Assembly (NCBI GenBank): GCA_963779615.1
Contig: CAVZZA010000003.1
Span: forward strand, 1,139,781-1,203,780
Source: an uncultured Nitrososphaeraceae archaeon
GTDB taxonomy: Archaea; Thermoproteota; Nitrososphaeria; Nitrososphaerales; Nitrososphaeraceae
Direction of reading: 5' to 3'
DNA length: 64,000 nt
Shown here piece by piece: positions 31,678 to 58,845 of this stretch. Within the stretch, counting starts at the first letter, position 1. Each line of letters opens with the position of its first letter. The position numbers were made by a program, and so were the translations under genes. The notes under the pieces are model-generated. The model was not told the DNA's origin. It saw nothing but the letters and a program-made list of their open reading frames with translations, and did not search any database.

Positions 31678-32386
31678 TTATGAAATGTGCGTTCCGTTAA
31701 TTTTGAGCCAATCTTTTTTTTCAGAATAATCAAACATATGATCCTCTACCAATTTCCAAAATTTTGGAGAATGGTTTTTTTCCACAAGATGGCCCATTTC
31801 ATGCAAAACCACATATTCAATCACACCAATGGGAGCTTTTACCAAATTAACATTTAAATTAACTGTTCCTTTAAAGGTAGCGCTACCCCACCTGCTTTTT
31901 AGGTTTTTTATCAGTATCTTTTTGGGCCTAACATTTAACAAAACAGAATATTTTTCCACAAATAGATTAAAAATTGCAAGAGCTACGCTGAATAACCATT
32001 TCTCATATATTGTTTTAACACTGCTTTTTTTTACATGGACAGTAAACGCGTCATTTGAAAACTCTAAAAAGTCGCTTTTTTCACCCTTAGCGACTTTTAG
32101 GATGCAATTTCTTCCCATATAAGGCAAAGTGGTGTTGTTTTTTGTACTCGGGAAGCATAATTTCGGGGTTTTTTCCATCATTTTCCTTTATTTTTTTGAG
32201 TATCCACTCTGCCTTATTTTTTACCATTGATTCTATGTCTTTTCTTGATTTTGAAAATGGAGTTCTTATCAAAACCTCATCGAACTTAACTATAATTTCA
32301 CTTGTTTTTCTCCTCCTAGTTTGTATAATCTTAAATCCTATCTCGTTGTTCTTGTAAACAATTTTATGTTTCTGCGTAATGGACAA
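31678..32386 (-). CDS. YgjP/DUF45 (M48-like) metal-dependent hydrolase, frameshifted
   Basis: RRRKTS...KAEWI in the first fragment; KSRWGS, YVVLHEMGHLVEKNHSPKFW in the second. Confidence 0.88.
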
Positions 32387-34429: not shown

Positions 34430-36440
34430 TTATGTGTAATCAAATAATGTCTTTTGATATGGCAATTTTTTATCATTTGTTTTGGATAGATTAGAGACTT
34501 TTATGCCCAGTTTACGTACAGAGGTAAACTTGCCCTCGCCAAATACACTATTCTCCACACCATCAAGTTGAAACTTTTCTAACAGCGGCTCCAACACACC
34601 AACAATACTCTCCTTATTACCATGATAGGTAGAAAGCGTTGTTTCCCTTGTTTCTACTGTAAAATCTGACCTCATTAGTTTAATGCCAACAGTTTTAAAC
34701 CCATATCCCCTTCTTTGGGTTCTTTCGTAAATATCGTCAACCAATTCATTCAAAAGGAACTCCAATATCACCTTCTTGTCTTTAGTTGGTTTCTGCAGTG
34801 TTTCCTCAACACTCAGAGACAAGTTATCCTCCCTTGGCAACACGGGTTCGTTGTCCTCACCATTAGCTACGTGCCACATCCACAATCCATTCTTTTTACC
34901 AAACCTATCAGTCAGTCTCTGCACATCACACTTTGCCAACTGTCCAATAGTGTTGATTCCCATTTCCTTCAAAACTTGATTAGTTTTTATCCCAATGCCC
35001 GCAATTCTATCCACCTCCAAGGGATCTAAAAACCGTAGCAAATCATCAGAACAAACAACGGTCAGCCCATCTGGTTTCTTGAAATCAGACGCAATTTTTG
35101 CAGCGGACTTTGAAGGGGCAACACCTATCGAGCACAAAAGACCATCGCATTGCGCTTTTATTGAATTTTTTATTTGAAGAGCATACCCCTCAACTGCAGA
35201 AGGCATGTGTGTTATTTCGCCTCCGATTGCTTTTTTCTTTTCTTTCATCTGTGTCCTGACACGATTGTGAATTTTGTATCACAGGCTGTTGTTGTTGCAA
35301 GAATTTGTTTGTACAATCAATATATGCCTCATCGATGCTTGCCTTTTCCAAGACATCGGCATATTCTTCCAATAACGCCATTACTTTGTCAGATATTTGG
35401 CCATAATACTGCTTGTCTACAGGCTTTAAAATAAGATCAGGGCACAGTTCTTTAGCCTTCAGTAAAGATATGGCAGATCTGACACCGTGTTTTCTAGCTT
35501 CGTATGAGCAAGACGCTACCGCACCCCTTGTTATACTGCCATCTTTTTCAGGCGTCATTATCACAGCATGGGGTTTACCTTTGAGGGACGGGTCCCTAAT
35601 TTCTTCGCATGTGGGAAAAAATGCGTTCATGTCAATGTGCATTATCATTCTTCCTGTCCAAGGAAATGATGGTGGCGGGATTTGAGAATCAATGCATTTT
35701 TTTTCCGGCAAATCCAATAACTTTAGAATATGGTTCAGTCTGGAGGGAGTATCCACAACTATAACTGCAAACTCCAGTGATTTTTTTTCACCGGTGCTTG
35801 TTGAAAAAAGTTCTTTCTCTTTTTGTTTTACCAGTTTAATCCAATCATCTTCATTGTTACTTTTTTTAGATGCACTATCGGCAATATTAAGAAAAATAAA
35901 ATCAGAGGTAACTGCAGGATAATAGGACTTTGATCCCGCATCAGACCAGACGAAAGAAGATTTGAACTTTCTTAGAATGTTATAGGTCAAATCTTGATGC
36001 CACAAGGATTGGCCAAATTCAAAAACTACATGGTATCCATGATATGTGCATTCGTTTGACATATTTTCAATCCATTCTCTTCCCCCCTCCATTAAAGACA
36101 TTGTCCTTGGTGGAGACACCACAACACACAGAGTCTTGTCTTTAAGGGGCCTGAAAAGTTCTAAAAACTCACCAGTGCTTTGCATGTTGCCCGCATACCT
36201 TTTCTCTACGGCATATTGAGGCACCTTTAAAGTAAAACGAAAGTCATCAGAAGTCTCCTCCGACCATTTATGTATAGCTGCCGAACTTGGCAGAAATTGA
36301 CTATTACCCATATCCAAGTGAACAAAATTAAGAATTTTGGAATAGTAAGAAAGGAAAAACCTTGAATCCAAATCAACAGGATAAAAGCCTTTAGCCCAAT
36401 GTTGGTTTCTCCATCCAGAGCAGCCAATATAATATTTCAA
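34430..36440 (-). CDS. dinB: DUF72-like domain fused to Y-family DNA polymerase IV (DinB/Dpo4), frameshift near 35250
   Basis: N-terminal IGCSGW...W...FYP (DUF72); HIDMNAFF, SYEARKHGV, SIDEAYID; second fragment KIASDFKKPDG, GIGIKT; C-terminal PIP box QKTLFDY. Confidence 0.9.
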
Positions 36441-42643: not shown

Positions 42644-43360
42644 CTATAAATCACACAAGTCTTTAAAACTTTTCCAATTGGAATTATCAGTGTCGTTCCA
42701 TTTTTCAAAAAAAACAACATCCTGTAAATCTAGCCTTTTTAACCATTGATATTTTTCCAAATCAGGCGCCTCATTGAATTTATCCACATATCCTAAACAA
42801 AGGTATGCAATTGGCTTTATGTGATTTGGCAAACCTAAAACACTAGTTAAATCAGAATTATCCAATATACTTACCCAACCAACACCTATGTCTTCAACTC
42901 GTGCAGCCAACCAAAGATTTTGAATGGCACAGCAAACACTGTAAATTCCCGCCTCCTCGATTGTCATCCTCCCAATCACAAAAGGCCCAAATCTATCGTG
43001 ATCATATGTTACGCAAATATTAAGGTCAGACTCTAATATGCCCTCTAACTTTAAATTACAATATTTTTCTTGCCTTTCTTTGTCTTCTTTTAAAAAATCG
43101 ATTGACTTCAGCCTCTCCTTTAAAAATGAATCCTTAACCTTTAACCGAGTTTCTTTGTCCTTTATCAATATAAAATTCCATGGTTGGGAGAATCCAACTG
43201 ATGGGGCGTGATGAGCAGCCTTTAGGATATTGTAAACTATTTTATCATCGATGCTTTTATTCAAAAACCGTTTTCGAACGTCCCGCCTTGAGTAAATAAC
43301 ACTGTAAAAAATCTCTTTTTCCAGCTCATTGAATTTCTTATCATGAACGTAATCGGCCAC
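42644..43360 (-). CDS. bluB: 5,6-dimethylbenzimidazole synthase
   Basis: RRDVR, APSVGFSQPW, Y..LKLEGI, SVCCAIQNLWLAAR.E.IGVGWVSI. Confidence 0.93.
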   Translation of the reverse strand: MADYVHDKKFNELEKEIFYSVIYSRRDVRKRFLNKSIDDKIVYNILKAAHHAPSVGFSQPWNFILIKDKETRLKVKDSFLKERLKSIDFLKEDKERQEKYCNLKLEGILESDLNICVTYDHDRFGPFVIGRMTIEEAGIYSVCCAIQNLWLAARVEDIGVGWVSILDNSDLTSVLGLPNHIKPIAYLCLGYVDKFNEAPDLEKYQWLKRLDLQDVVFFEKWNDTDNSNWKSFKDLCDL

Positions 43361-44355
43361 ATAATCTTAAAAAGTAATCATCAATTTCAATTTTGTTTTT
43401 AAATTAGTTTACTTTTACTTTTACTTGTAATTTTATAATAACATAGAGTAACCCATTTTCAGGTAAAGGTTTGAGATTAACATATCTAGTGCAATTCAAA
43501 TCCATGCATGGTTTGAATATAAAAAAGAGAATCACAATAATCACTTTCAAGATGGTTTTGAAAATATGCATGGATTAAAAATCATTGCGTTGAAATTGAG
43601 TTGGTATGAAGATCAGTACCGCTTTGTGTATTCTACGAATGTATCAGGAGCTTTATATCGTTATTATGCTAACTTTATTTTGCTAAGAAAAAACCCAAAA
43701 CTGTGTCTTTGCTAAACAGCGGCAAGAAACATGTAGGGTAACTGCTAATGTACTCTGGTTTATTTACCGAAAAAAGATGGAAGAAGAAATTTTTCTATCT
43801 TTTTTCCGGTTATTCTTTTCAATGGCAACAATTATCGATTTGTAGTAGTAACATTTACGTTAATTCCCATACAGTGAAACTTGGTTTGTTCTGATATTTT
43901 GCAAAGCCAATGCATGAAATATATGTACTTAACACATACCAATTTACCATCATTTGTGGGTTTGCATTGGGCACTATTGCCGACGATCCACTAATTTGTA
44001 AGATGATTGAAAGAGGAGAAAGACCAGAAAAATTGATAAAAGTAGCCGATAGTATTTCAGATTTATGGTCGAAATAGGACCAATTTCTTCCTCTTAATAA
44101 CCCAAAATCATCCACATCTCATGAAAAAAATAAGTTATTGTCTGTAGTGATACTCTCTGGAGATAACTAAGCAATAGTATTACATACAAAAGACATAACC
44201 TTGGTGTGACAATATGCATACCAAATCATCCGAATAACAAACAACAAGTTAAAAATATAAGGATATTTGTTATGATATATTTATGAAAATAAGTAATCTT
44301 ATTGAGAAAAATTATTTCATTATGATGAATTGACTACTACACCAAAAAAATGAAA

Positions 44356-44901
44356 TCATAGATCTTCCATCAGGGAAATATAATTGTCAACACTTCTGTC
44401 TAACAGGGTAATGTCAGTTTTCTCAATTAGTTTTTCTACTTCTAATGGGTTTTTGAGGGAGTATTCTGAAACTTCAATTCCTCTTTTTCTGATTATTACC
44501 TCCGAGTCCAATAGCCTTTTTAAGTTCCAGGATGTGGTTGATGGGGCTCTATTGATATGAGAGACTAGCTCATTAAATGTGCAGGATTTTCTTTCAATTA
44601 GTTTTAGAATTATTTCTTTTGTTGTTCTTATCTTTAAATACCCTAAAATTATTGTTTCTTCTGAGGGAGTAGATGCAGGATAATAGCGAGTAATGTTGCT
44701 GTTTTCTGTTCGTATAACTTTGATAGTCGAACGTTTTTCCAAAGTGGCAAGATGGTGCGATAATGTTCCATTATTTAAATTGGTTATTCGCAATAATTCC
44801 CTATATCTTATTCCAGGCGAAAGATTAATAATTTTCAATAAAAAACTCTTTTTATTTTCTTTTTCTAATTTGCCCAAATCCAATATTTCTTTGTGACTCA
44901 T
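44356..44901 (-). CDS. Double winged-HTH transcriptional regulator
   Basis: PGIRYRELLRITNLNNGTLSHHLATLE and TFNELVSHINRAPSTTSWNLKRL; overlaps the upstream gene by ATGA. Confidence 0.85.
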   Translation of the reverse strand: MSHKEILDLGKLEKENKKSFLLKIINLSPGIRYRELLRITNLNNGTLSHHLATLEKRSTIKVIRTENSNITRYYPASTPSEETIILGYLKIRTTKEIILKLIERKSCTFNELVSHINRAPSTTSWNLKRLLDSEVIIRKRGIEVSEYSLKNPLEVEKLIEKTDITLLDRSVDNYISLMEDL

Positions 44902-45308
44902 TTTCTCTCAACCCTAATTACTCCAGCAGCAAACAAAGATACCATAAGGAGCAACAATATATGTGGTAGCTCGACCTCAATATAAGGTATATGATAATCT
45001 CCAAGAATATCGCTTGCTTGTAGCAAATATAGAAATTCTACAATCAACAGTATGCTAAAGCTTAATGAAGTTAGCAAAACTCTTTTGCTTTTTGTCTTTT
45101 TAAATGAAAGGATGGAGATAACGGTTAGAAACAAGGCAATGTCAAAACTTATGAGGTGAATAGCAATATGATAGATCATTCCAGGATGGAACAAATGGGG
45201 AACTAGCACGGGATAAACAATAATAGAAGTGAAGGAAATTGACAGTACTAAGAAAAGGTTGGTTTTGTTATTTAAAAAATCTTGAATGTGTCCTAAAATA
45301 GCCACCAT
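44898..45308 (-). CDS. His/Met-rich 4-TM membrane protein (candidate metal sensor)
   Basis: Four hydrophobic segments; PHLFHPGMIYHIAIH loop, YH and ELPH; paralog at 56077. Confidence 0.75.
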   Translation of the reverse strand: MVAILGHIQDFLNNKTNLFLVLSISFTSIIVYPVLVPHLFHPGMIYHIAIHLISFDIALFLTVISILSFKKTKSKRVLLTSLSFSILLIVEFLYLLQASDILGDYHIPYIEVELPHILLLLMVSLFAAGVIRVERK

Positions 45309-45600
45309 TATTCTTACTGTTCTTTATCATCCCTTTTTAGCAATGACTATAATAATTGAAAAAGTTACATAAAAGGCAATTGGTACAATAACAAAATAAA
45401 GAATCAGAATGCGTACACAAACAGATTAGCTAAATTAATAAAAATCAAAATAATTAGAGTGCAATAACTGCATATTTGCAAAGGCATTGTTGACAAAAAT
45501 TTAAATTTTAATATCATATGATCTAACAATAAAAAAAATATGATGATAGTGATTGCATATGTTTTCTACATATTGCTACTGCTTTGTTGTCGCAATCCCA

Positions 45601-46263
45601 TTATTTGTTTAAAGTCGAGTTTTCAGATGTGTTTGACACACCTAACCTAGATTGTATGTCCACATTTGGTAAATATGGTTCAGGAAATCCCAATCGTGGT
45701 TCAGGGCAACCAAATCCTCCTACCAAAGCTTTTCTTACAACATCCTGTGAGATTTGGACTGTGGAATTGTCAGATTTTGTTGCCTCTCCACCAGCCGGAT
45801 TGCAAGCAAATGTTTGATCAAAGCTTGTTCCGTTAATATCACCAAAAATCCTGTAACTGTATGTAGTTGCAATGGTTGGATAGAATGTTTTAGATTCGTA
45901 TGATCCAAGTTCTCCAAAGGCAGGCTCCAAATCAGAGGTCATGTTTTTATCCCCGGCGGATATTTCCACTTTCAAGGAGTTTTCCAGCCCCGTTATTGGC
46001 TGCGTTCCATTGGCTTGGGAATTGGTCGGGTCGGTGGCGTTTGGCCAAATACCCCTAAAATCAACACCCGTTTTATCATCAACAGATGCCGGTTCATTTA
46101 GCGAGCCTATCACAAACAAGTAGTCTTTACCATTTATTGTATACAATGCCTTTTGATGTGCAAGAGCAATCTGGCTATTAAGAGATAATAGCAGTATTGC
46201 AGCTGCAGCAATTGTGCCAAACATTAATAGATTCTGTCTTCTACGATTATTTTTAATTCGCAT
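45601..46263 (-). CDS. Secreted protein with predicted mature N-terminal His (paralog A)
   Basis: RRR-containing signal ending ALA|HQ; NEP, LEPAFGELGSY, YPT, two Cys. Confidence 0.8.
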   Translation of the reverse strand: MRIKNNRRRQNLLMFGTIAAAAILLLSLNSQIALAHQKALYTINGKDYLFVIGSLNEPASVDDKTGVDFRGIWPNATDPTNSQANGTQPITGLENSLKVEISAGDKNMTSDLEPAFGELGSYESKTFYPTIATTYSYRIFGDINGTSFDQTFACNPAGGEATKSDNSTVQISQDVVRKALVGGFGCPEPRLGFPEPYLPNVDIQSRLGVSNTSENSTLNK

Positions 46264-46316
46264 AAATTGTGTATTACCTTCATTATTGAAATAAATAATT
46301 TTTTTTATAATTTTTT

Positions 46317-46339
46317 TGGTGTATTCGTAGAATAAAACA
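46317..46339 (-). promoter_or_regulatory. Semi-palindromic operator upstream of the paralog A TATA box
   Basis: TGTTTTATTC-TAC-GAATACACCA, then 7 nt, then TATAAAA. Confidence 0.65.
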
Positions 46340-46877
46340 AGAGGCTATTTATTAAGATAATTTTCAAATAATTTTATAAACATGGCAAATCAGAAAAATT
46401 AAAAAAATCCATTATTGCGGATAACGCTTTATCCTGTTAATAATCCAGAGGTCCCATTTCACCAAATATCTTGATTGTTTGGTATAACATTCTACAAAAA
46501 GTTTTACCCATTGGTAACTGCATTAGTTAGAATTTCTTTTTCTATTTGGAAAATAGTGTGTGATTATTTACCCCAATCCTTCACAGATTTACATGAGTCC
46601 AAAGAGATGGATTACCCACAATAAGTCGATTTGAAACTAAATATAACAATCATCATAATTACCCTTGTTGAGATCCCATTCCTCTGTTCCTTTCAAATAT
46701 CTCCATCGTGCTTTCGGCTGTGGTTTACTTTTTTAATGGATAGACATTTCCATAGATAACCAGGCAGATATAACATAGTTGTAATTTAAAATTATTTTAA
46801 AAAATATTTCTTAAACTATTCAAATAATTAATCATGGTTGAACTAAAAACAATAGATCAAAATAATGAATCCAAAAT

Positions 46878-46900
46878 TACATTGTTCGATGTTTAAACAA
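46878..46900 (+). promoter_or_regulatory. Weaker operator copy upstream of the paralog B TATA box
   Basis: TACATTGTTC-GAT-GTTTAAACAA, then 7 nt, then TAAATAT. Confidence 0.4.
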
Positions 46901-46937
46901 CATTGGTTAAATATTTAAGCAAACAATATACATAACA

Positions 46938-47570
46938 ATGTCATATAAAACACATCTAAGATTTGCAACTTCTTTTTTCCTTATATCCGCGTTTATTACT
47001 GCACCTCTTATTCAAACATCTTTTGCTCATCAAATATCATTATACACAATAAAAGACAAAAACCATTTATTTGAAGTGGAATGGGCTAACGAACCGGTAG
47101 CTGTAGATGATAAAACAAATGTTCAATTTACAGCTCTCTTTCCAAACGCTACGGACCCGACCAACCCTGAAGCTGATGGAACGCAGCCAATAACGGGGCT
47201 GGAAAACTCCTTGAAAGTGGAAATATCCGCCGGGGATAAAAACATGACCTCTGATTTGGAGCCTGCCTTTGGAGAACTTGGATCATACGAATCTAAAACA
47301 TTCTATCCGACCATTGCAACTACATACAGTTTTAGGATTTTTGGTGATATTAACGGAACAAGCTTTGATCAAACATTTGCTTGCAATCCAATTCTTGGTG
47401 AAAATTCACCACCTGACAATTCCACAGTCCAAATCTCACAGGATGTTGTAAGAAAAGCTTTGATTGGCGGTTTGGAGTGTCCTGAAGATAGGACAGGCTT
47501 TCCTGAACCATATGTACCCCAAAATGATTTAGCTCAAGCATTAAACAATGCAACAACACCTAAACAATAA
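46938..47570 (+). CDS. Secreted protein with predicted mature N-terminal His (paralog B)
   Basis: Signal ending SFA|HQ; NEP; core nearly identical to paralog A. Confidence 0.8.
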   Translation: MSYKTHLRFATSFFLISAFITAPLIQTSFAHQISLYTIKDKNHLFEVEWANEPVAVDDKTNVQFTALFPNATDPTNPEADGTQPITGLENSLKVEISAGDKNMTSDLEPAFGELGSYESKTFYPTIATTYSFRIFGDINGTSFDQTFACNPILGENSPPDNSTVQISQDVVRKALIGGLECPEDRTGFPEPYVPQNDLAQALNNATTPKQ

Positions 47571-47719
47571 AATCAATTTTTTTTAAATCGAATAGTTTTA
47601 TAATGAATGATTTTGTTCATGTATATAACTTTCAATTTATTTTATCCTTTAAGAAATTTCAATTCATCTTGTTATCTAGTGAAAGATATTGATTTTTGTT
47701 GAGCATGTATGGTTATGTA

Positions 47720-47742
47720 TTGTTAATTCGGGATTTGTACAA
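47720..47742 (+). promoter_or_regulatory. Operator upstream of the copC TATA box
   Basis: TTGTTAATTC-GGG-ATTTGTACAA, then 7 nt, then TATTAAT. Confidence 0.6.
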
Positions 47743-47777
47743 TAATGATTATTAATATTATCATATAACAATGGAGT

Positions 47778-48546
47778 GTGAGAATTTTTAAACCTCTTTT
47801 TTTTCTAATTTTTTATACTATAGGGATAAGTATATTTATTTTGCCTGTGTATGGACATGCTAATCCCACTGTCTTAAATCCAAAACCAAACCAAACATTT
47901 GACATTAACGGTCAAGCAGTGCCTGATAAAATATCGATTACTTTTTCAGAAAGGCCCGAAATAAAAGCCAGCAATATCAAGGTAACTGACTCAAAAAATA
48001 CAAGAGTGGATAACAACGATTTAAAGACTTTGAGCAGTGATGACAGAACACTTTCAGTTTCTTTGGGTAAATCAAAAATAATACCCGGAATATATACGGT
48101 AAACTGGATAGTCTTGTCAAAGGATGATGGACACATTACAAAAGGGATCCTATGTTTTCTCAATAACTGAAAATAACAAACAAAGTGATAATCAAGCAAC
48201 AAACAACAAATGCACTGCCAAAATATTCGAAAAATCTTACAACTGAAAACATAATTTATGAAGTTCGGTATTTCTCCCGTTTCAAGCGGGACAAAACACG
48301 TTTAATTTAACAGCTTTATACAACAATGGCACTTCTGTTAAAAATATCAATAATGTGTATTTAGAGTTTAACAATCCAACTAAAAATATTGGTCCAATTG
48401 TTGATGTAATGAACAAAACGTCACCAGGAAACTATTCATCCACTGGTAACTTTTTAAGCCAAACTGGAGATTGGGAGATTAAGATAATTGTGCAGAGAAC
48501 AGGAGAATACGACATTAACCAAAAACTCGATATAAACATAAAATAA
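47778..48546 (+). CDS. copC: CopC copper-binding protein with a C-terminal YtkA/FixH-like domain, frameshifted
   Basis: VYG|HANP His1, ITFSE, GIYTVNWIVLSKDDGHITKG; distal fragment GNYSSTGNFLSQTGDWEIKIIVQR. Confidence 0.85.
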
Positions 48547-48604
48547 TTCTCCATTTTATTCATTATTTTAATAATTCGAAAGAACACAATATAAACAATA
48601 GACC

Positions 48605-50054
48605 ATGATAAATACCAATTAAGCTTTTAGGTGTTATTTTATTAATAACTTCAATAATCAATGGCATACTTCAAATCCCAAATACGGCATTTGCTCAACA
48701 GGAATTTAACAATTCAGGAACAACTGAATCAGTGACTTCCAATTATGACGCAATAATTAAATCCATTTTAATTATATCGCAGGTGTCAATTTTGGGAATA
48801 ACATTCAATCATGTCATTTTTCAAAAAATTATGAGAAGGAAAAATAATCAGATGGTGATGGAGGAAAGGATTATAACATAACGCAATAATCAATTATTGA
48901 AAAGATTTACTGTCATTTTAGCACTTTGCTGCATAACCATAATAATTGCTTCTACAGGCATAATGTTAATTCAATCCTATGAGCTTTCACAAAATCTGTC
49001 CCAAGATCTGTTTTCTGCGTTCTCCATATTGTATACAACATCAGTGGGTCAGGTTTGGACGATAAGAATCATTACCTCTTTAATGATAACAGCATTGGTT
49101 TTTTCCCATTATATTGATTAAAAGGAACGCAATAAAGAAAAAGATTAAGGGCAATTCAACCCAACAGCATGGAGACAAAATTTCCAATACTATTGCCATA
49201 TTACTTCTCATTAGGGATTATTGTCGTTTCTTCGATAAATCTATTTTCCAACAGCATGTTAAGTCATAGCAATAGTTTGTCACCTTTAGCGGTATCAGTT
49301 GATTGGATTCATTTTATGTCAGTATCCATTTGGATTGGAGGTTTATTCTACCTGTCATCCATTTTTTTAAAAAGCATAAAATTATCCTATAAATGAATCT
49401 GCCAAAAGTATAGATGATGATGAAAGCGACATTAAAAATAGTATATTAAACACTCATCAAATTTCTTTTATCGTTAATGTGTTTTTCATTTATTGCCATT
49501 TCATCACTTTGCATAATCGGAACAACCGGATTGTATATGAGCTTGATCCATTTACAAAGATTAGATGCAATATTTACTACTTTATATGGTCAAATACTAA
49601 TCATAAAACTCAGTTTAGCTTTCACAGTGATTTTTCTGGGCAGGCACAATCAGCTTAAAATACAAAAGTATGCCGCAATCACATCAAAAGTCATAATAGG
49701 AAGCAGCATCAATAATGACGATCAAAAAGCCTTTTCAGGTCACAACAAAAAAATAGTCTGTTTTCTTTAATTCAATGACATAGATCCCTAAAAATAGAAT
49801 CACTAATGGGAATTTCCGTTCTTATTGTAGCATCTTTTCTTTCAGTAACCTCCCCACCTTCCCTGGAAACATCAAATCCAGATTCTAATCTCAACAACAA
49901 TACTAATTTAACAAATAATGCAAAAAAGGAATAAATGTAGACTTTACTATAATGGTAATAATTTTGTCAATCATTATAATAATTTTTGGCATTGATTAAC
50001 TTTAGAAAAAACAGGCAACAAATAAAGGAAATATTTCCACCCTTTTCCAGGTGA
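48605..50054 (+). CDS. copD: CopD-family copper transport membrane protein, heavily fragmented
   Basis: Fragments TSVGQVWTIR / SH...DWIHFMSVSIWIGGL / GTTGLY...TLYGQILIIK / KIES; many frameshifts, so errors or a pseudogene. Confidence 0.75.
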
Positions 50055-50290
50055 CTATTTTTTAGCAAACAGGCCCATTATAATCACAATGAGGCAAGAT
50101 TGCTGAATTTGATTATAATTGGATTAATTAATAATGTTGTTAAAGTTTTTTTCACATCGTTTTTCCTTCCATGTTTAAAGAAGTTAATTTAACATGATTG
50201 CAAAATAAATAAAAAAATTAAAATTATTTGTCTCAGCAAGAAAGTTATAATCATTGGATTTTGTACAAATATTCAGGAAAAAAAAGAAGA

Positions 50291-51765
50291 CTAAAGGACA
50301 GGAATGACAGCTAATTTTACATTACTGCCATCTATCCATGAGATCGCCATTATCCTATCTGAACCCGTGGTATATGGATAATGCTTTGTTATATCACCTG
50401 ATACAAAGTTACCATTTTTAATCAAATGTCCATTCTTATCCACAACAGCTAAATGTATTGTACCATCTCCAACAAAGCTGAAATCTTCTTCATAGGTAGA
50501 GCTTTTCTTCAATCCTTCAGAGTTTACAAAAACAATCCATGAATTACCATATTTATCTGTTTTAAGGTATTGGGTTGTAGGCGGAATCCATTGTTCTGAA
50601 AGCAGGTGAATGGGCAGAGGTTTGTTAAATGTTAATCCTTTGTCACCAGAAGTCGTATAATAGAATCCAGGGCCATTTGGAGCAAACTCACTTCCCGTAA
50701 ACCAAGCAATATGAAGGGTTCCATCCTTATCAAAATCCATGCCAGGTCCGGAATCAGGGCATCCATTCATGAACCATTTATCGTTTCCCACACGAGAAGG
50801 AGTGGAGAAATTTTCAGCTTTTCCATTATCAGTGGAATGGTAAACTGTAATGTCCCTAATTACGGTTTGATTCTGACCATCTTCCAGCAAAAACGGAGTT
50901 TTGGTGCTATTATCATTCAAATCAAGAGATTTGTTTTGAAAAGCAGATCTGGAGGTAACGTATAGCTCATCATCAGGACCAAATTTTATGACCGTAGCAC
51001 AACATTGGCATGCTGAATGATCAGCAATGGAACTGTTAGAGAAAGTCTTGCCTCCATCTTGGGAGCTTACAACTCTAACTACAGTGGGATGTACCAGACA
51101 CATCTTTTTCCAGGTCATAATCAAGATTAAGGTAGGATATGTAAACTTTGTCATCGGGTGTTACTGCTATGTAGGGATATGATTGTTCCCCCTTTGGGTC
51201 ATTTGGTGCAGGGTTTATTGCAGGTTGGAATGTAGATCCCCCATCTAGTGATCGAGCATATTGCAAGGTTACCTGGCCATATGGGTACTTTACCGGATCG
51301 CTGTGGTCGGCTTTGTACCATACTACATGTATGTCATTTTTAGGCCCTATCCCCAAGGCAGGGGCACTCCATTGTTCATCTATGGCAATAGAATCTTTGA
51401 CATCGTTAACTCTGACAGGATTAGAATACGTTTTACCAAAATCAATGGATTTTTGTAGATACAAATTCCCACCACTGCTTTCGTTTTTGAAGTAGATAAC
51501 ATAAATTGCATTTGTTTTAGGATCAATACCTACTGCAGGCGTAGTTGCGTTTTTAAAAGTGTTGAATATTGTATTGTTCAAGCTTTTATCAATGATTGAC
51601 TTCATACTAGTATTATTATTACTGGTAATGTCATTTGATAACGAAACAGTAGAGTTTGAAGCAAAAGATAGGTGTTGTTGCTGCTGATTGAATTTGACTC
51701 ATACTGCCGATAAAAAAAAACACGATAGCAAGAATTCCTAAAATTTTGTATTTACCAGTAAACAT
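50291..51765 (-). CDS. Secreted BNR/Asp-box (sialidase-like) beta-propeller with CxCC and GCP motifs, two frameshifts
   Basis: Asp boxes SIDFGKTY, SLDGGSTF, SQDGGKTF, STDNG, SGDKGLTF; ADHSACQCC and WFMNGCPDSGP; signal peptide from ATG 51765. Confidence 0.82.
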
Positions 51766-51804
51766 TGTTTATGGTAATAGTTATTTTAGCATTTATAGCA
51801 TTTC

Positions 51805-51827
51805 TTGTACAATTATAGAATCCAACC
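51805..51827 (-). promoter_or_regulatory. Operator upstream of the propeller gene TATA box
   Basis: GGTTGGATTC-TAT-AATTGTACAA, then 7 nt, then TATAAAT, ATG about 26 nt further. Confidence 0.6.
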
Positions 51828-51844
51828 ATTTGACAGATTAAAAA

Positions 51845-52627
51845 TTAAATCGGAATCAGCGGCTGTGTATTGTTAGGTATATAGCTTGTTATTAGAGCAA
51901 GCTGACCCGTCAAAAGTATGACTCCGATAACTATCAATATGGCTCCGCTTATTCTGTTGATCCATGGCATCCACTTTCTGATTCGCTGGAAAAAAGAGAT
52001 GAATCTTTCTATTACCAATGCAGAGACAAAAAAAGGTATTGCCAAACCCAGTGCATAGAATGATAAAAGCTGAATACCGGTCCAAATAGAAGTGCTTGTC
52101 GCTGCAATTGTCAATATTCCTGCAAGAATTGGACCAATACAAGGAGTCCAACCAGCTCCAAAACTCATTCCAACTACAAAGGAACCTACCTGGCTTGTCG
52201 GTTTATTTTTCATTTTAAAACCTAATTGCCTTTCTAAAATTGGTATTGTAAACAAGCCAGTTAGGTGGATTCCAAAGGTTATTAAAAGTGCCCCCCCTAT
52301 TCTGGCTATCCATATGCTATAGTCGTAAAACACACTCCCAATTGTTGTAGTGGAGATTCCAAGAAGAATAAACACCACGGAAAATCCTAATATAAACATT
52401 GTTGTTCTTAACAAAAGCTTGCTCCTGATTTTTTTTCTATTTTCTCGCTCCTGCTGAATTTGTCTTTTCTCCCCTACCGGGTTGTTTCGGTTAAAAGAGG
52501 AAAAATCTCCCAAACTTGTTCCAGTTACAAAAGCTAGAAAACTTGGAATTAGAGGCAATACACACGGTGATAAAAAACTCAACAAACCCCCAATAAAGGC
52601 AAGAGGGAATCCAATATTGTATGTCAA
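51845..52627 (-). CDS. ccdA: CcdA/DsbD-type transmembrane electron transporter
   Basis: SFLSPCVLPLIP and WTPCIGPIL. Confidence 0.93.
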   Translation of the reverse strand: MTYNIGFPLAFIGGLLSFLSPCVLPLIPSFLAFVTGTSLGDFSSFNRNNPVGEKRQIQQERENRKKIRSKLLLRTTMFILGFSVVFILLGISTTTIGSVFYDYSIWIARIGGALLITFGIHLTGLFTIPILERQLGFKMKNKPTSQVGSFVVGMSFGAGWTPCIGPILAGILTIAATSTSIWTGIQLLSFYALGLAIPFFVSALVIERFISFFQRIRKWMPWINRISGAILIVIGVILLTGQLALITSYIPNNTQPLIPI

Positions 52628-53271
52628 AGATGCTTGAGGTGACGAATTGATAGTTGTTGTTTCTGTTGGCTTACCATCCGCAACAGAAGAAGAATTGCCA
52701 TTTTGTAGATTGGGCTATCGAATTTATATGAGCACTGATTGCAGGAGATTGCGCTGGTAATAAAATTCTCAATATTGACAGTATTCCCTTCTATAGGACC
52801 TCTCCACCTATAAACAACCTGGCCATCTTTGTCTATTAAAAAGGATTCGGGAACTCCTATGGTTTTAAACGCCCTGGCAAAATTGTTGTTTGGGTCAAAT
52901 AAAATTGGATATGTCATATTTAGTTTATTTGTAAAGGAAGTTATCATGGATTCTGATCCTCTCCTGTCTATGGAAACACCTACTACGTCTACACCATATT
53001 TGTTGAGGTCCTGATATATTTTCTCCAATATTGGAATTTCTTCTCTACATGGTTGGCACCATGTGGCCCATAAATTCAACAATGTCAGATTATTCTTTTT
53101 GTAAATTGATTCAAGGGAAACAATTTTTTTTGTTTCTAAATCAATGCTTGAATATTTTGGAGCTAAAGGAAAACCATCAGTTTTTTGAGAAAAGGCATCA
53201 TTTTGATAGCAGATGGTCAATACTATTACCAATAAAGACATTATACAAACGCTTTTGAAGATATTTACCAT
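52624..53271 (-). CDS. TlpA/ResA-like exported thioredoxin
   Basis: NLWATWCQPCREEIP, GVPESFLIDKDG; N-terminal anchor; C-terminus may be frameshifted. Confidence 0.9.
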   Translation of the reverse strand: MVNIFKSVCIMSLLVIVLTICYQNDAFSQKTDGFPLAPKYSSIDLETKKIVSLESIYKKNNLTLLNLWATWCQPCREEIPILEKIYQDLNKYGVDVVGVSIDRRGSESMITSFTNKLNMTYPILFDPNNNFARAFKTIGVPESFLIDKDGQVVYRWRGPIEGNTVNIENFITSAISCNQCSYKFDSPIYKMAILLLLRMVSQQKQQLSIRHLKHL

Positions 53272-53315
53272 AAAAATATTATAATTTTATTTGGCTTTAG
53301 TAAATATTAACTTTA

Positions 53316-53338
53316 TAGTTCATTCAACGAATTTACAA
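53316..53338 (-). promoter_or_regulatory. Operator upstream of tlpA-ccdA
   Basis: TTGTAAATTC-GTT-GAATGAACTA followed 6-7 nt later by a TAATATT box. Confidence 0.65.
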
Positions 53339-54082
53339 TTTCAAGACTAGCATGGTGCATAAATATGCCATATTGATAGATTTGTTTCGGATTAAATAGC
53401 CAAAAAGATGTTGGGTATTATCCATTTGTAAAAAGGGAATGGCGGTAGTTGTTGTTTATATAACCAAAGCCACATTTTGATGAATTGCATCTGAAAGAGG
53501 TACCACCATTAACTGTGGATATGACTTCAGGTGATATGGAAAACGATATTTCCACAATCATTTCCCTGGCCACCTTATCACGGCTGACAAACGTCTTTGA
53601 CGTATTCCTTTGGGTTATTGTTTGGCTAATCCCGATAGCAACTTTTACCTTTTGGATATATTATAGTCTCTTCACTTTTGGGCAAGGTATTCAAAAGGTA
53701 TTTACATTTTTATAAATCATAAACCATATAATGGTTTGAGAAACCGACATCAACTCTTTTACATTCTTAATTTTATGCATATCGCTCATTTTACAAGGGT
53801 TATCTTTTTTAAACCATTCGGCCAGTGCCGTAATATTTGATACAGAGGAACTTTCTGTAAAAATGGATATTTTATTCCTTATGTTTTGTTTAACCTTGTT
53901 TTACCTCTTGTGACAGCCATCATCTCCAATGCTAATGTTGTTACATAGAATATGCACTATCACCTTATCCTTCCCATTATTCATTTACATATTTCCTATA
54001 TCTGGATTGTAAAAAATAGATAAAATTTTGACATAAGTGTAACCATACACCAACCCATCTATGCATTGAATAGGTCGTTATC

Positions 54083-54720
54083 TCATTGCTTTGTAGTAGT
54101 GAAAGAGTCTTTCGTGAATCCATGCATTAGCGAATTAACATTCCCGTGAATTGGCTGCCCATTAAAGTGTTGTTCTACTTGTTCATTATTTACATTAAGA
54201 TTGATTGTATTGTATTTGTTAATATCCAAACTCGAAGTTACATTGCCCCATTTAATTTTACCATGTTCCATAACATCTATTAATCCAGTTATTTTTGTTG
54301 AGCCACTTGAAGGTAATTGTAAATTAGTTTCGTTTGACCTAAAATTTACAAAACTCATATCATGACGGTTTGTACCATCAAAATGAACCATCGTAATTTT
54401 TGTATTAAAGTCTGTAATGTTCCCACCAATTACTTCCAAATTCCAATGTCCCCCTAGCGTGTAACTTGTTTGATTATTTGCTGGAAATGTGATGTTGTTT
54501 TCTGGGGATGTTGATTGATTGCATGCCTTTTATTACTAACGAATTTATCATACCGCTGGCAGAGAATGTATTAATACCACCTATATTATTGGTATTTTCT
54601 GATTCAAGACCAGATGCCGGCAAGGATTGTGCATTTACCTCAAAAGCAGTAGATGGATAATGGCAGAAGTAATAACAAGAAGGTCCCTAATGTTAGGGAT
54701 ATTTTACCTGAAAATTTCAT
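54083..54720 (-). CDS. Secreted hypothetical protein, frameshifted
   Basis: Signal peptide from ATG 54720; FSASGMINSL; YTLGGHWNLEV...MVHFDGTNRHDM. Confidence 0.6.
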
Positions 54721-54755
54721 ATATACAATGTGATAATATTGCCATATAACTTTTG

Positions 54756-54778
54756 TAGTACAAACATAGTTACACTAC
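54756..54778 (-). promoter_or_regulatory. Operator-like site upstream of the 54720 gene TATA box
   Basis: GTAGTGTAAC-TAT-GTTTGTACTA, then 7 nt, then TATATGG. Confidence 0.45.
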
Positions 54779-55649
54779 AGTACCATAATCCAATAAAAAA
54801 GAATTGTAATTGTTCACAAACTCATATCATTGAAAGAGAATTCAACCAATTACAAAACTCATTTAGTATATTATTTGACTACGTATTTGCCGAAAATATC
54901 ATACTGAGTAATTAAGTCTAATGTGTCCTAACTGTATCATCCATTAAAATTAATAATTCAAGAAAAAAATTTATGAGATAATCCCAGATTAAAAATCACA
55001 AAGATAACAGAGCTGAAAAAAATTGTATATCATATCATAATTAAAACATACACAAAACAACATCAAGAGCAAATTCTAAGTCCCTACATAGAAAGCATAA
55101 CATTTCCAAAGATAGACATTACAACACAGTAATTTTTTTATCAATTTTTATACATATCTGTAAATACTGCATTTCCAAAACTACCTCTTTACCTTATTCA
55201 GCCCAATCTTCAAATTAATTAATGTCCCAAAAGTCAGAATACACGATTAAAATGATCACTAAGAAGAAAAAAATTATTGTTTTTTAAGCTATCTGTCTTT
55301 TTTAGTCGGTTTTTAAAAGAGTACTCAATTATTTTAATCACTTAAAATACCCTATTTAGGATTGAAAGCACATAAATAATAATTACTTGATAGGAATAAA
55401 TCAATAGTACCCTTTCTGTAATTAGGTTGTTAAATAATCATTGAGGGAGAAAGATGGCGCCCTTTTTAATAGAGTACATTAGCAAGATGCATCATCTATA
55501 ATCATCCTTCAATGACAGTATTTTCGTCAGAATATGACCATTTGCAGGCTGGTTGTTCTTTATGCCTCACTACCCTATTGCTGGGCAAGCACTTTTGCAT
55601 TGTATTGCAAGCCGCAAATACTTTTACAATATTTTAAATAAAAAGGTTT

Positions 55650-55674
55650 TTGGTTCATTCTTAGAATGAACCAA
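55650..55674. promoter_or_regulatory. Perfect palindromic copy of the operator, with no intact adjacent gene
   Basis: TTGGTTCATTCT-T-AGAATGAACCAA; 20/25 identical to 46316-46340. Confidence 0.6.
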
Positions 55675-56076
55675 TTGAAGTTATTTTAGTTTGACATTAT
55701 TTATTATTAATGATTGATTAAGATTAAAATAATGACTCATATATTGTGCAATTGGATTTAATTTGGCAGACAATTCAAATTACTGATCCATAAAATTGGT
55801 AATGCATAAAGGTTTTTTGACCATGGCATTTATGAAAGTGGTAGGACTTATGAGGATCAGTTGAATCAGGGTACAAAAACTATAAAGAGTTAGGCAGATG
55901 ACGTAGTTAGTGGTTATGTAAATGGTAATGATGGGTTTATCAACTTCTATTGTTTAAATAGTTTTTATGATGCCTTGCCCGACATGTTTGTTTGTGAATT
56001 TTATACTGTCAATGTTTTAATTGTGTTTTTATTTTAGGAATGTACCAATCGCTTTTTAAGTTACTTTTCCGATGAA

Positions 56077-56514
56077 ATGTTATTGCTTAAAAAGGACAGC
56101 AATATCAGCTATTATGAGTACTTTCAGGTTTTCCTCAGCAATAAAACTAATCTCTTTTTGGTGTTATCCTTAGTATTCATATCCATTATTGCTTATCCGT
56201 TAATTTTACCTCACATGAATCATCCATCAATGATTTACCATATTGGAGTTCACATAGTCAGTTTTGATGTGGCATTATTTTTAACTTTTATTTCAGTTTT
56301 ATCGTTTAAAAAGACCAAAAGCAAAAAGGTTTTACTTACATCGTTAAGTTTTGGCATACTATTAGTTGTAGAATTTTTATATCTGTTGCAATCAAGTGAC
56401 GTTCTAGGAGAATATCATTTACCATATATTGGAATAGAAGTACCGCACATTCTGTTATTGTTTATGCTCGTTTTCTTTGCTGCCGGAGTAATAAAGGTCG
56501 AAAAAAGATCATAA
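56077..56514 (+). CDS. His/Met-rich 4-TM membrane protein, paralog of 44898-45308
   Basis: NKTNLFLVLS, PHMNHPSMIYHIGVH, FKKTKSK, EVPHILLL shared with the first copy. Confidence 0.8.
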   Translation: MLLLKKDSNISYYEYFQVFLSNKTNLFLVLSLVFISIIAYPLILPHMNHPSMIYHIGVHIVSFDVALFLTFISVLSFKKTKSKKVLLTSLSFGILLVVEFLYLLQSSDVLGEYHLPYIGIEVPHILLLFMLVFFAAGVIKVEKRS

Positions 56515-56760
56515 TAGCCAAGGAAGAAGCAGAAAGAGAATTACCATTATCTAATTCTAATACAAGGAGAAAAAACATAAAGAGCAGAATATTGGAAACA
56601 ACGATTTTTCAAATACAATAAGAGACCCCATTGGAAACTAAACTTAATAATGGAACTTGTTTACGTACTTTTTAGAAACATTAGAAATAATCATCAATTA
56701 AAGCAAGGAAACAAAGCACCAACTGCCCAAACTGTTTTTAATAGTGTCCGGTAAATCCAA
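56515..56760 (+). pseudogene. Decayed wHTH regulator remnant
   Basis: Fragments KSRIL..., TKLNNGT, LETLE, SSIK resemble the 44356 regulator, with stops and indels. Confidence 0.55.
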
Positions 56761-57070
56761 ATATAGTATTATTTAAAAAACAACACAATAAACGTGGTTC
56801 TGTTCTCCTAAGAAAAAAAATACATTCTTTTGTTGGATATACCGGTTTTTTACAAGCAAAATATAGTGTTTGTATCTACGGTTCAAAAAATATTAATTTA
56901 ACAAACTTCTGTTTTCAATCCGGATAAACGGTATACCATCTCCGGGTGTTCAAAAAGATAATCCGCCATAACAATGATGGGGGCATTTTGTGATGGGTAC
57001 ACCAATTTTTTCTGGTAACTAAAAAGCTATGTTTATACAGAGTATTTTTCAACAAAATCACCCGTTTTCT

Positions 57071-57741
57071 GGCGCTGTTAACTTAAGCATTTACCACTTC
57101 CTTGTTATGCATATTTACAAATAGTTTCAACCAATTCTTTACATTATAGAGATTACATCTTTTCTTTCCACATGGAAAGTAATCGTCAAATCCTTCGATT
57201 CTATCCTTAATATATTGCACAGTTCTCTCTATGAGACCCTTCTCATATGGGAAATGAATGTGGTGCTCCAGTTTTAGGGATTTACATGCTTGCGGATACC
57301 ATGTAGATCTGTTGATACTGATTGTTTGCCATATTCTTCAACTATGTCAAGCATAAAACGTTCTGCTACGAAAATATTTCTCGCCTTGGATATTTTTGTG
57401 CGAAGAATTGCTTGGGTTTTAGGCTCAATAGCAATCCACAGCCAAAAGAATTCAGAACATATCTTGATTTGTGTTTCATCAATGATAAACTGTGATACCA
57501 TCTTTCTATTTGACGACATCTTTTGAGGCTTGCACTTTTGAATCCAGTTCCAGACTAGAACGTGGCTTCTCTTAACAATATGCAAAAATGATAATGCTTT
57601 GGCAACATTTCTAAATGATAAACCAAGAAAGTACAAATACAAACCATGACCAATATGCTCTGAAGGTGTTCTGTTTCTTTTACTACACACATGAGAGATA
57701 AAGCATCTTCAAGTTATATCATTTTCTTAAGTTAAAGAACC
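57071..57741 (-). mobile_element. IS6-family insertion sequence; transposase 57083-57690 with a frameshift near 57305
   Basis: LYFLGLSFR, SHVLVWNWIQK, IDETQIK, WLWIAIEP, VSTD, TWYPQAC, IERTVQYIKDR; terminal IRs GGCGCTGTTAACTTAAG and GGTTCT-TTAACTTAAG. Confidence 0.9.
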
Positions 57742-57990
57742 TCAAAGCACTATCTTTTTTTATAAGGATTGCCAAGAGAAGCAATAATACCGCGAAAAAG
57801 AATGGATAAAGAAGGCGAGATTCACAACATACGTAATCTGCATACGTCTTTTGATTATCATCATCTCTTTATCCTTGCCAATATCCAGTGTTTTAGCAAA
57901 AGACTTTCATTTATTTGCCATATTTTATATCGGGATTGTCCTTCAACTTTGAACAAAATAGTTAAAAACAGGGAAAAGAATTCTCTGTTA

Positions 57991-58845
57991 ATGAAACAAT
58001 TAACCATAACATTATTTCTGATTTTTATCCTACCTTTTTCTTACTTAATAGACTCCCACTCATCACATGCTCAAAAGTTAACAGCAACGTCAGTAATGAC
58101 CTTGGCCAGCGTTAGTAGTAATAGCACGGGCGTAAGTACTCACACAATAGAAAATAAGACGGTTAACTACTATGGCAACACCACAGGATATCTAGCATAT
58201 CCATCCCTAAATCAAAGTAATCAGGTAGAAAAACTTCCAGCAGTGGTGATGATTCACGAGAACAAAGGATTGAATGATTTTATCAAAGACTCAGCAAATA
58301 TTCTTGCTAAAAGCGGGTATGTTGTTCTGGCCGTTGATCTATTTAACGGGGAAATATCAACCGACCAGGATCGCTCAAGGGAATTAACATCCACGATAAG
58401 AGAAAACCCCAACATTGCCATAGAAAACATGAAATCTGCTGTAAGTTATCTTGGCTCTCTTGATAACGTTAACGCCTCTAGAATCGCATCTTTAGGATGG
58501 TGTTTTGGTGGCGGCCAGTCACTACAACTTGCACTCAATAGCAATGACCACCCTCTTTCTGCTACAATAATTTACTATGGAGTTCCATTAACAAATGACA
58601 CTAAGGCGCTTTCCAACATAAAATGGCCAGTATTAGGGATATTTGGCGATAAAGACATGGCAATACCTGTTGATACGGTAAAACAATTTCAACAAGCGTT
58701 AACTGAGCTTGGCATACAAAATGAAATTTATATTTACCCTGGTGTTGGGCATGCATTTGCAAATCCATCTAATCCTAACCATGCTCCAAATGAGACCGCC
58801 GACTCATGGAAAAAGACACTAAATTTCCTAAACAAATATGTTTAA
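57991..58845 (+). CDS. Exported dienelactone hydrolase-family protein
   Basis: AVVMIHE, GWCFGG, FGDKD, GHAF; signal peptide from ATG 57991. Confidence 0.9.
   Translation: MKQLTITLFLIFILPFSYLIDSHSSHAQKLTATSVMTLASVSSNSTGVSTHTIENKTVNYYGNTTGYLAYPSLNQSNQVEKLPAVVMIHENKGLNDFIKDSANILAKSGYVVLAVDLFNGEISTDQDRSRELTSTIRENPNIAIENMKSAVSYLGSLDNVNASRIASLGWCFGGGQSLQLALNSNDHPLSATIIYYGVPLTNDTKALSNIKWPVLGIFGDKDMAIPVDTVKQFQQALTELGIQNEIYIYPGVGHAFANPSNPNHAPNETADSWKKTLNFLNKYV

Follow-up and report, generated by a model that had tools for sequence, protein, structure and literature searches.

Ammonia-oxidising archaea rely on copper enzymes. What is the function, in such an organism, of the gene block at positions 44356-56760 of a 64,000-nucleotide stretch of DNA from an uncultured Nitrososphaeraceae archaeon (hereafter the window), and is the block something new? 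It encodes a small membrane protein with a winged helix-turn-helix (wHTH) regulator, exported proteins whose mature form begins with histidine (His1 proteins), CopC, CopD, a TlpA-CcdA pair and a beta-propeller, and a first-pass annotation had proposed it as an undescribed copper-acquisition regulon. The window is the final 64 kb of contig C3 in a genome of 3.17 Mb (5 contigs, completeness score 92.5%) in which archaeal amoA is present (E 1.6e-117), and the closest homologues of its proteins bear the source name Candidatus Nitrosocosmicus. The block is very probably this archaeon's copy of the copper-acquisition cluster that soil ammonia oxidisers induce under copper limitation. It is a new member of a published cluster type and not an undescribed regulon, because the same gene set, copper response and promoter motif, together with a copper-uptake model, were reported for Nitrososphaera viennensis in 2020 (PMC7785015).

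The genes were called from the open reading frame (ORF) listing and from Pfam and NCBIfam scans of the window, and every gene that had been listed for the block was found within 44356-56760. Two of the earlier descriptions needed amending. The membrane protein, which had been called His/Met-rich, is His-rich (7 His) but not notably Met-rich (3 Met), and it has no Cys and falls into no known family. The supposed second, partly decayed sensor/regulator copy comprises an intact membrane protein of 145 aa, but its decayed wHTH is a marginal remnant at best. The two secreted His1 proteins are paralogues, as had been stated, with 73% identity. The features are listed by position, with scores in bits from the position weight matrix (PWM) described below.

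43629-43651 (+): orphan motif site with TATA-like TTTATA, PWM 13.4 bits
44356-44901 (-): wHTH regulator, two-domain, ArsR-like (Pfam HTH_5, HTH_HVO_0163_N, MarR)
44898-45349 (-): small four-helix His-rich membrane protein, copy 1 (ORF from ATG 45308, 136 aa)
45376-45398 (-): weak motif site, promoter of the membrane-protein/wHTH operon, PWM 9.2 bits
45601-46263 (-): sec1, exported beta-sandwich protein, His N-terminal after the signal peptide
46312-46334 (-): sec1 motif site ATTCTACGAATACAC, exact ATTC-N3-GAAT, PWM 9.7 bits
46883-46905 (+): sec2 motif site, PWM 16.4 bits
46938-47570 (+): sec2, exported beta-sandwich protein with N-terminal His, paralogue of sec1
47725-47747 (+): CopC-YtkA motif site found by PWM, the window's best match to the published consensus
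47778-48546 (+): CopC domain with YtkA-like C-terminal domain, frame change near 48147
48605-50040 (+): CopD membrane protein in four pieces, frames +3, +2, +1, +3
50291-51765 (-): exported BNR-like beta-propeller with CxCC (CQCC) and a fourth Cys; ORF 50291-51605, split frame
51800-51822 (-): propeller-gene motif site, PWM 21.5 bits
51845-52627 (-): CcdA/DsbD-type membrane thiol-disulfide transporter, PF02683 56.3 bits
52624-53271 (-): TlpA/ResA-like exported thioredoxin, WCQPC, AhpC-TSA/Redoxin matches over cutoffs
53311-53333 (-): TlpA-CcdA motif site, PWM 22.1 bits
54083-54720 (-): third secreted protein, unknown family; ORF 54083-54439, 188 aa in a relative
55646-55668 (no strand): perfect 8-3-8 palindrome GTTCATTC-N3-GAATGAAC, TATA-like elements on either side
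56030-56052 (+): weak motif site of membrane-protein copy 2, PWM 11.8 bits
56077-56514 (+): membrane-protein copy 2, intact, 145 aa
57274-57690 (-): IS6 transposase fragment, just past the block

In N. viennensis under copper limitation, Reyes et al. (2020, ISME J) report a 25-gene cluster around two copC/D genes, with 15 of the 25 genes upregulated, and propose a first copper-uptake model (PMC7785015). The log2 fold changes given there are 2.47 for an ArsR regulator, 2.72 for a 'presumably co-transcribed' hypothetical gene, 2.68 and 2.20 for CopC/D, 2.64, 2.80 and 1.44 for exported proteins, 4.23 for a small hypothetical gene, 2.78 for DsbD and 3.98 for a 'sialidase', and mRNA of the genes equivalent to those of the block is reported to rise 2.7- to 16-fold (log2 1.4-4.0) without copper (PMC7785015). 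The two clusters are alike in combining an ArsR-type regulator and a small hypothetical membrane protein with CopC/CopD, exported proteins, a DsbD-family protein and a 'sialidase' propeller. They differ in that N. viennensis has CopC/D fusions whereas CopC-YtkA and CopD are separate genes here, in that TlpA is present here (fused to CcdA in some relatives), and in the duplication here of the His1 protein and of the membrane protein.

Promoter motif and recurrence in relatives

Does a single element link the promoters of the block? The motif reads TTC-N3-NWWT-GWAC and lies 7-9 nt upstream of a TATA-like box (the gap from GWAC to the box is 7-9 nt in 8 of the 10 tabulated sites) and 45-71 nt from the start. 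A regular expression with a TATA filter selected 35 sites from relatives, one of which was dropped as dissimilar, and the PWM was built from the remaining 34, with no window site in training. The consensus of the relatives' sites is TTCGATGATTGTACAAGAA plus TATA, and the full palindrome GTACATTC-N3-GAATGTAC, situated between divergent genes, is present in 8 of the 34. Six sites of the block score 13.4-22.1 bits by this matrix: 43629(+), 46883(+), 47725(+), 51822(-), 53333(-) and 55668(-). A scan of the archaeon's own genome returned 34 hits of at least 13 bits, with 6 in the 13.5-kb block compared to 0.14 expected, and the block accounts for 4 of 8 hits of at least 16.4 bits and 3 of 5 of at least 20 bits; at a threshold of 12 bits the scan is noise (65 hits in the real genome, 61 in a shuffled one). 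The motif is real and far above chance. These counts bear out the proposal that the block is one motif-linked module, and the claim that six promoters share one motif at a near-fixed distance from TATA was confirmed with more than six promoters, weaker sites of 9.2, 11.8 and 9.7 bits included.

The weak site at 45376-45398(-) reads TTT TGT TATT GTAC and lies 8 nt upstream of TTTTAT, and the promoters of membrane-protein copies 1 and 2 are 78% alike over 46 nt. The third secreted gene has a poor motif match of 4.2 bits. Exact ATTC-N3-GAAT occurs 7 times in the window compared to 2.6 expected, with 4 occurrences intergenic within the block; the alternative spacing ATTC-N4-GAAT was rejected, since 2.7 matches were expected and a single one was present. 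The element directly adjoins the site of the recognition element (BRE) for transcription factor B (TFB), and a bound factor could either recruit or block the basal machinery.

How does this motif relate to the published one? For N. viennensis, 12 occurrences of TTCSGSMTTTGWACYANT are reported between -35 and -70 relative to the start codon, multicopper oxidases being among the neighbouring genes (PMC7785015). The best match to it in the window, at 47727 in the CopC promoter, has 2 mismatches and stands 51 nt from the start; a search for TTCSGSMTTTGWACYANT with up to 4 mismatches is noise (34 hits, compared to 16-31 in 20 shuffles). Both motifs have the operator core TTC-N7-GWAC near the start codon, and in both genomes sites also occur near a multicopper oxidase elsewhere. 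The difference lies in the left half, which is MTTT in the published consensus and GAAT/GATT in this genus, where full palindromes are common. By sequence comparison, the block motif and TTCSGSMTTTGWACYANT are the same element.

The synteny check that had been proposed was run. Among ten loci fetched from the genus, the same genes are clustered in 6 (5 of 7 genomes), 2 have the secreted-protein gene only and 2 have a small subset. The core module, comprising the membrane protein with its wHTH, a His1 protein and CopC-CopD-YtkA, recurs in other genera and in three further families. Two genomes of another genus in the same family (G179 and G191) have the order wHTH, membrane protein, CopCD, exported His1 protein, CopCD, which is the order of NVIE_014280, 014290, 014300, NVIE_1457 and 014310 as reported for N. 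viennensis (PMC7785015), and they carry TTCGGGATTTGTACCATA, one mismatch from the published consensus, upstream of CopCD. Over the 230,445 bp of loci from outside the genus, the PWM gave 33 hits of at least 14 bits compared to 1.7 expected, 11 of them less than 300 nt upstream of recognised module genes; this rate represents enrichment near the module and not a genome-wide one, because the loci were picked for module genes.

Three points weigh against equating the block with the published cluster. Gene order, domain content and the wording of the published annotation are the grounds for calling the genes of the block orthologues of the NVIE genes. The expression evidence comes from N. viennensis, and the block of this organism is known from DNA alone. 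Moreover, the regular expression that chose the training sites came from the window, for which reason the PWM test is only partly independent.

Several motif sites border DNA of less evident function. The orphan promoter at 43629(+) faces about 700 nt (43629-44350) that hold no ORF of at least 60 aa on the plus strand; relatives have a comparable site, followed 230-440 nt downstream by a second site and a propeller-paralogue gene, and this gene is missing here. The palindromic promoter at 55668(-) is followed by about 600 nt (55086-55674) that likewise lack an ORF of at least 60 aa and contain just a 32-aa ORF, which a 2-nt indel breaks in the paralogue. A second motif-like site stands at 55487(-) inside this region. 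Within the archaeon's own genome (G000), the region matches C1:630138-630760(+) at 82% over about 610 nt (89% over the first 290 nt), and a third copy at C3:6641-6812 matches at 75% over 170 nt; the sequence downstream of the promoter is conserved within this genome only, and relatives match the promoter part alone. An Rfam search of 43000-58000 at E up to 1 returned no match. The region may be a copper-regulated non-coding transcript or a remnant of duplication. A second group of motif sites in the same genome (C1:630156, 632540/632552 and 633450) lies near a multicopper oxidase, and this group (630-633 kb; C1:635189-635509, locus L030) also has several exported proteins without a family assignment, a protein with a dCache domain and an IS6 fragment whose first 75 residues are 76%, and whose following 54 are 50%, identical to the fragment at window 57274-57690. 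Upstream of the block, cobalamin-related genes (aminotransferase, CbiA/CobQ-like, CobD and CobS, 10723-14472; BluB, 42644-43360) are without motif sites and have no evident tie to it.

Candidate regulator and putative copper signal

Which protein, then, would bind this motif? According to Reyes et al., how the cop genes are regulated 'remains an open question' (PMC7785015). One candidate within the block is the wHTH protein, whose gene shares its first 4 nt with the end of the membrane-protein gene. It matches HTH_5 (PF01022) at 40.1 bits (cutoff 22) and has an HVO_0163-type N-terminal HTH, giving two wHTH domains, and its homologues are annotated as ArsR/wHTH regulators.

The membrane protein is its constant neighbour. 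Of 201 genomes of the order, 98 contain a member of its family, and in 10 loci from 5 families, chosen around membrane-protein matches for contig span and family spread, the wHTH gene directly follows the membrane-protein gene in all 10, a His1 gene is present in 7 and CopCD in 5. In five genomes without the membrane protein, a CopD match is also absent from four. Close homologues of copy 1 are 146-148 aa long, compared to the 136-aa ORF here, because of which the true start probably lies near 45349, out of frame by 1-nt indels. Conserved residues form P-H-x2-H-P-x-M-x2-H-x3-H, placed where helix 1 ends and helix 2 begins, and E-x-E-x-P-H ahead of helix 4, and Lys/Arg are concentrated in the 70-76 loop and at the C-terminus. 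By the positive-inside rule, this placement of Lys/Arg would put both His clusters outside, which would suit an extracytoplasmic metal site. After copy 2, the search for a wHTH gave nothing significant (best tblastn E 0.08-1.3), and a colinear LNNGT...SSIKARK stretch is present at about 56637-56720. Fold matches of the membrane-protein model were rejected as helical-bundle noise (best Z 9.1; ORAI, ZnT3 and Mrp subunits) and neither favour nor oppose a cation channel.

A quite possible alternative, which we regard as tentative, is that the motif is bound by a regulator encoded elsewhere, such as a CopR/S-like two-component system or a dedicated TFB, and that the wHTH and membrane protein act otherwise, for example as a cation channel with its own regulator. 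Reyes et al. point to an upregulated two-component pair and suggest it as the regulator instead (PMC7785015), and the small membrane protein NVIE_014290 is termed a putative cation channel by Dreer et al. (2025; PMC12448741). The same alternative gains from the wHTH itself, in which no metal site is recognisable: across 20 sequences there is no Cys and one invariant His (H50), and the score against the NCBIfam metalloregulator NF033788 is 36.1 bits, below the cutoff of 55. In the library that we searched, no paper was found in which the regulator or its DNA binding was tested. These points count against the wHTH as the copper-responsive factor. On the other side stand the pairing with the membrane protein in 10 of 10 loci, usually near CopCD and a His1 gene, and the joint absence of CopD matches and the membrane protein in four of five genomes. 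Moreover, the membrane-protein/wHTH promoter bears the motif in relatives, and more weakly here, and a palindromic operator fits a winged-helix dimer or a two-domain protein.

Taken together, the chances that the wHTH of the cluster is the motif-binding factor are evenly poised; that the membrane protein supplies the copper signal is doubtful, though conceivable. In such a mechanism, at low copper the two-domain wHTH would act at the operator, its own promoter included, and the outward His cluster of the four-helix membrane protein would supply the copper signal.

Proposed copper capture and import, and the broken reading frames

What would the induced proteins do? In the exported His1 proteins, His31 directly follows the A-x-A of the signal peptide, and both His31 and Glu52 are present in every one of 22 sequences; more distant family members add a coiled coil and a C-terminal membrane anchor. 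An AF2 model gives a beta-sandwich (pLDDT 84.7), and after structures were re-aligned, 17 of the 19 best PDB chains were periplasmic copper-binding proteins of the P19/FetP/FtrA/HftA or CrdA kind, at Z 7.7-9.1, a level that the tool calls common (Z below about 9). The P19/FetP-type matches align 111-117 of about 150-158 residues at 6-9% identity, and CopC and the CopC-like domain of YcnJ match at Z 5.4-5.9. These fold scores from a predicted model are suggestive only, and Foldseek with the same model returned nothing at E 0.001 or below. The commonness of such scores tells against a copper role for the family, as does the lack of a Pfam or PDB sequence match (no PDB match below E 0.29). None of the 22 members matched DUF1775 at E up to 1, and the library searched likewise gave no paper in which the family was tested. 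Kinship with CopC-YtkA was rejected by hhalign (probability 0.5%), and an Atlas search gave Filamin and YtkA-like clusters at 0.89-0.90, leads only.

The importer is more readily recognised. The CopC domain (PF04234) scores 46.6 bits (cutoff 23.3) in ORF 47778-48170, and its Cu(II)-site residues VYG-H...DDGH are invariant in 5 of 5 orthologues and kept in the window. CopD (PF05425) scores 39.1 bits (cutoff 32.1) over the pieces 48897-49770 of a gene split over four frames. The C-terminal domain that follows CopC, or CopD in fusions, gave weak YtkA-like matches in three of three proteins (E 2e-4 to 3e-3, below cutoff), on the basis of which the archaeal importer appears to have the YcnJ architecture CopC-CopD-YtkA. 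In other families of ammonia-oxidising archaea (AOA), CopC-CopD-YtkA proteins of about 990 aa (L036:7285-10275(-) and L037:10631-13609(+)) carry an extra C-terminal beta-propeller of Vgb_lyase/SGL/NHL type, unlike the separate BNR-like one of this genus.

The remaining proteins include candidates for thiol chemistry. CcdA (DsbD_TM, PF02683) scores 56.3 bits (cutoff 27.1), with two Cys in SPCVLP and TPCIGP. The thioredoxin is TlpA-like only, at 69.9 bits against a TlpA equivalog cutoff of 230 and 91.7 against a ResA cutoff of 170. The propeller falls short of PF13088 both in the window (18.0 bits) and in an intact orthologue (21.7 bits; cutoff 31.4), and its 'sialidase' label is nominal. Its CxCC, fourth Cys and one His are invariant in 8 of 8 orthologues and paralogues, because of which it is a plausible client of TlpA-CcdA or a plausible Cu(I) site.

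As the papers do, we infer a stepwise scheme of sensing, capture, reduction or hand-on, and import. The His1 proteins and CopC would coordinate Cu(II) by an N-terminal amine, imidazole and carboxylate before handing it to CopD for uptake, in the way put forward for YcnI/YcnJ in Bacillus subtilis; capture of Cu(II) by His1 proteins and CopC and transfer to CopD has about an even chance of being correct. Electrons from CcdA would pass to TlpA and keep partner cysteines reduced, the propeller CxCC being one candidate; that CcdA-TlpA so maintains the thiols of copper-handling partners is possible, and we advance it with some hesitation.

Could the block instead serve copper resistance, or envelope redox or biofilm growth, with its induction under copper limitation in a relative being indirect? 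The original descriptions of CopC and CopD came from resistance operons, envelope thiol repair is a general DsbD/TlpA role, and the region is upregulated in biofilms, where Dreer et al. report it for the copC-copD region of a Nitrosocosmicus strain and for the N. viennensis region (PMC12448741), and by two nitrification inhibitors. However, the equivalent genes are reported to be induced by copper withdrawal with a copper-selective chelator (PMC7785015), the ORF list and Pfam scan of the block gave no CopA/CopB-type partner, and in Bacillus a CopC-CopD-YtkA protein with an N-terminal-His partner is reported to support copper-limited growth (10.1101/2025.05.23.655588). A resistance or envelope function is thus very improbable, and copper acquisition remains the favoured role.

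A different difficulty is presented by the reading frames. When relatives' proteins were aligned with the window, five genes of the block proved not to be intact ORFs. CopC-YtkA has a single frame change near 48147 (one ORF of 256-258 aa in relatives); CopD has at least 3 (493-549 aa intact in relatives), and its pieces retain the spacing of an intact orthologue, without large deletions; the propeller shifts frame near 51089 and once more within the stretch for the signal peptide (505-506 aa in relatives); TlpA and CcdA lie in different frames (fused in some relatives, 520-537 aa); and the N-terminal signal-peptide part of the third secreted gene is out of frame.

These frame breaks are most likely indels of assembly or sequencing and not gene decay, a reading based on the splitting of housekeeping genes in the same window and on the lack of the extra bases in other runs. 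Thermosome (5730-7435), GTP cyclohydrolase III (20964-21757), DHBP synthase (22208-22835), DinB (34430-36440) and a YgjP-like gene (31678-32386) each appear as two ORFs that overlap or adjoin. Contigs from other public runs, which represent related strains 90-99% alike and are uninformative for the parts of the block they leave uncovered, show 1-nt indels relative to the window, at 48147 in 2 runs and at 45293 and 45320 in 3; over the wHTH and sec genes the contigs listed have no gaps, except for one sec2 contig that extends into the upstream spacer (3 gaps). Each sequencing run contained at most a quarter of the sampled words, and none was usable as the strain's own reads. Assembly indels may also account for a completeness of 92.5% in a genome of only 5 contigs.

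The competing explanation is that the cluster is truly decaying in this strain, with real frame shifts, and that copper import depends on the single CopD encoded at another place in the genome. The block has at least 10 breaks in 12.4 kb, a density several times that of the remaining window, where at least 5 clear cases fall within about 44 kb. Long homopolymers occur at 3 of the block's 8 break regions and at 1 of 4 elsewhere, which does not account for most breaks. Both points speak against assembly indels, and because of them real decay, especially of CopD with its several frame changes, deserves consideration. Further in its favour are the loss of the second regulator copy, the adjoining IS6 fragment, a second CopD at C3:1020124-1020453, and a closed genome of the genus (G029) in which one membrane-protein/wHTH copy is likewise interrupted by stops. 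That copy (locus L017, region G029:C1:90499-91499) carries stops and frame changes that reflect either decay or assembly errors. In opposition, essential single-function genes of the window are broken likewise, the genome reaches a completeness of just 92.5% despite its 5 contigs, the CopD pieces preserve the spacing of the orthologue, the extra bases at three break points are missing from contigs of two to three other runs, and promoters and motifs are intact throughout. Decay is accordingly improbable, and we retain the assembly explanation.

Contigs from a soil metatranscriptome library (run X17), 90-99% alike, overlap block genes (44402-54774) and cover the wHTH, membrane-protein, sec1, sec2, CopC-YtkA, CopD, propeller, CcdA and third secreted genes. 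They are compatible with expression of related strains in soil, without showing regulation.

New here are the recurrence across genera and families, the pairing of membrane protein and wHTH, and an unnamed His1 beta-sandwich family in which the His after the signal peptide is invariant. The known range of the published motif and core module, previously a single Nitrososphaera species, now takes in several genera and families, one directly testable regulator candidate, the wHTH of the cluster, is singled out, and a concrete testable role is given to the 'exported proteins of unknown function', which belong to the genes with the strongest induction under copper limitation. The full combination is possible but on balance unlikely: the membrane protein and its translationally coupled wHTH would form a new membrane-coupled copper sensor-regulator pair for an order-wide AOA regulon acting through GTACATTC-N3-GAATGTAC beside BRE/TATA, and the His1 protein would be an archaeal Cu(II) chaperone that reached the YcnI solution (N-terminal His plus Glu) independently and feeds CopC-CopD.

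Comparison with known systems

How close do other known systems come? One of them is copper import in Bacillus subtilis. The Cu(II) ligands of YcnI are reported to be the N-terminal His together with a Glu and a Trp, and YcnI is reported to be membrane-anchored and to exchange Cu(II) with the CopC domain of YcnJ (10.1101/2025.05.23.655588). Like ycnKJI, the archaeal module joins a regulator gene to a CopC-CopD-YtkA importer, in fused form in other AOA families; unlike it, the module has another type of regulator and adds TlpA-CcdA and a Cys-rich propeller. His1 proteins and YcnI are both extracytoplasmic beta-sandwiches beside CopC-CopD-YtkA with His as the first mature residue and a carboxylate (H31/E52 here, His27/Glu50 in YcnI), and the C-terminal membrane anchor of YcnI has a counterpart in distant archaeal His1 members. 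They differ in that His1 proteins lack sequence similarity to DUF1775 and offer no evident equivalent of the Trp that is conserved in YcnI. This comparison supports the view that His1 proteins work like YcnI, filling its genomic and chemical niche without DUF1775 membership.

P19/FetP/FtrA and Helicobacter pylori CrdA, which are extracytoplasmic copper-binding beta-sandwiches that work beside membrane permeases, give the best structural matches to the His1-protein model, but the identity is 6-9% and the Z scores fall in the tool's common range. To our knowledge, these proteins have not been reported to bind copper by an N-terminal His. Finally, the CcdA/DsbD-TlpA pairs (ResA, ScsB/ScsC-type) share with the block a CcdA-type transmembrane domain with two Cys and a signal-bearing CxxC thioredoxin, the genes of which are adjacent here and fused in relatives. 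The archaeal proteins differ in that their scores do not come near the NCBIfam equivalog thresholds of TlpA, ResA and DsbD, and in that their link to copper is by co-regulation only.

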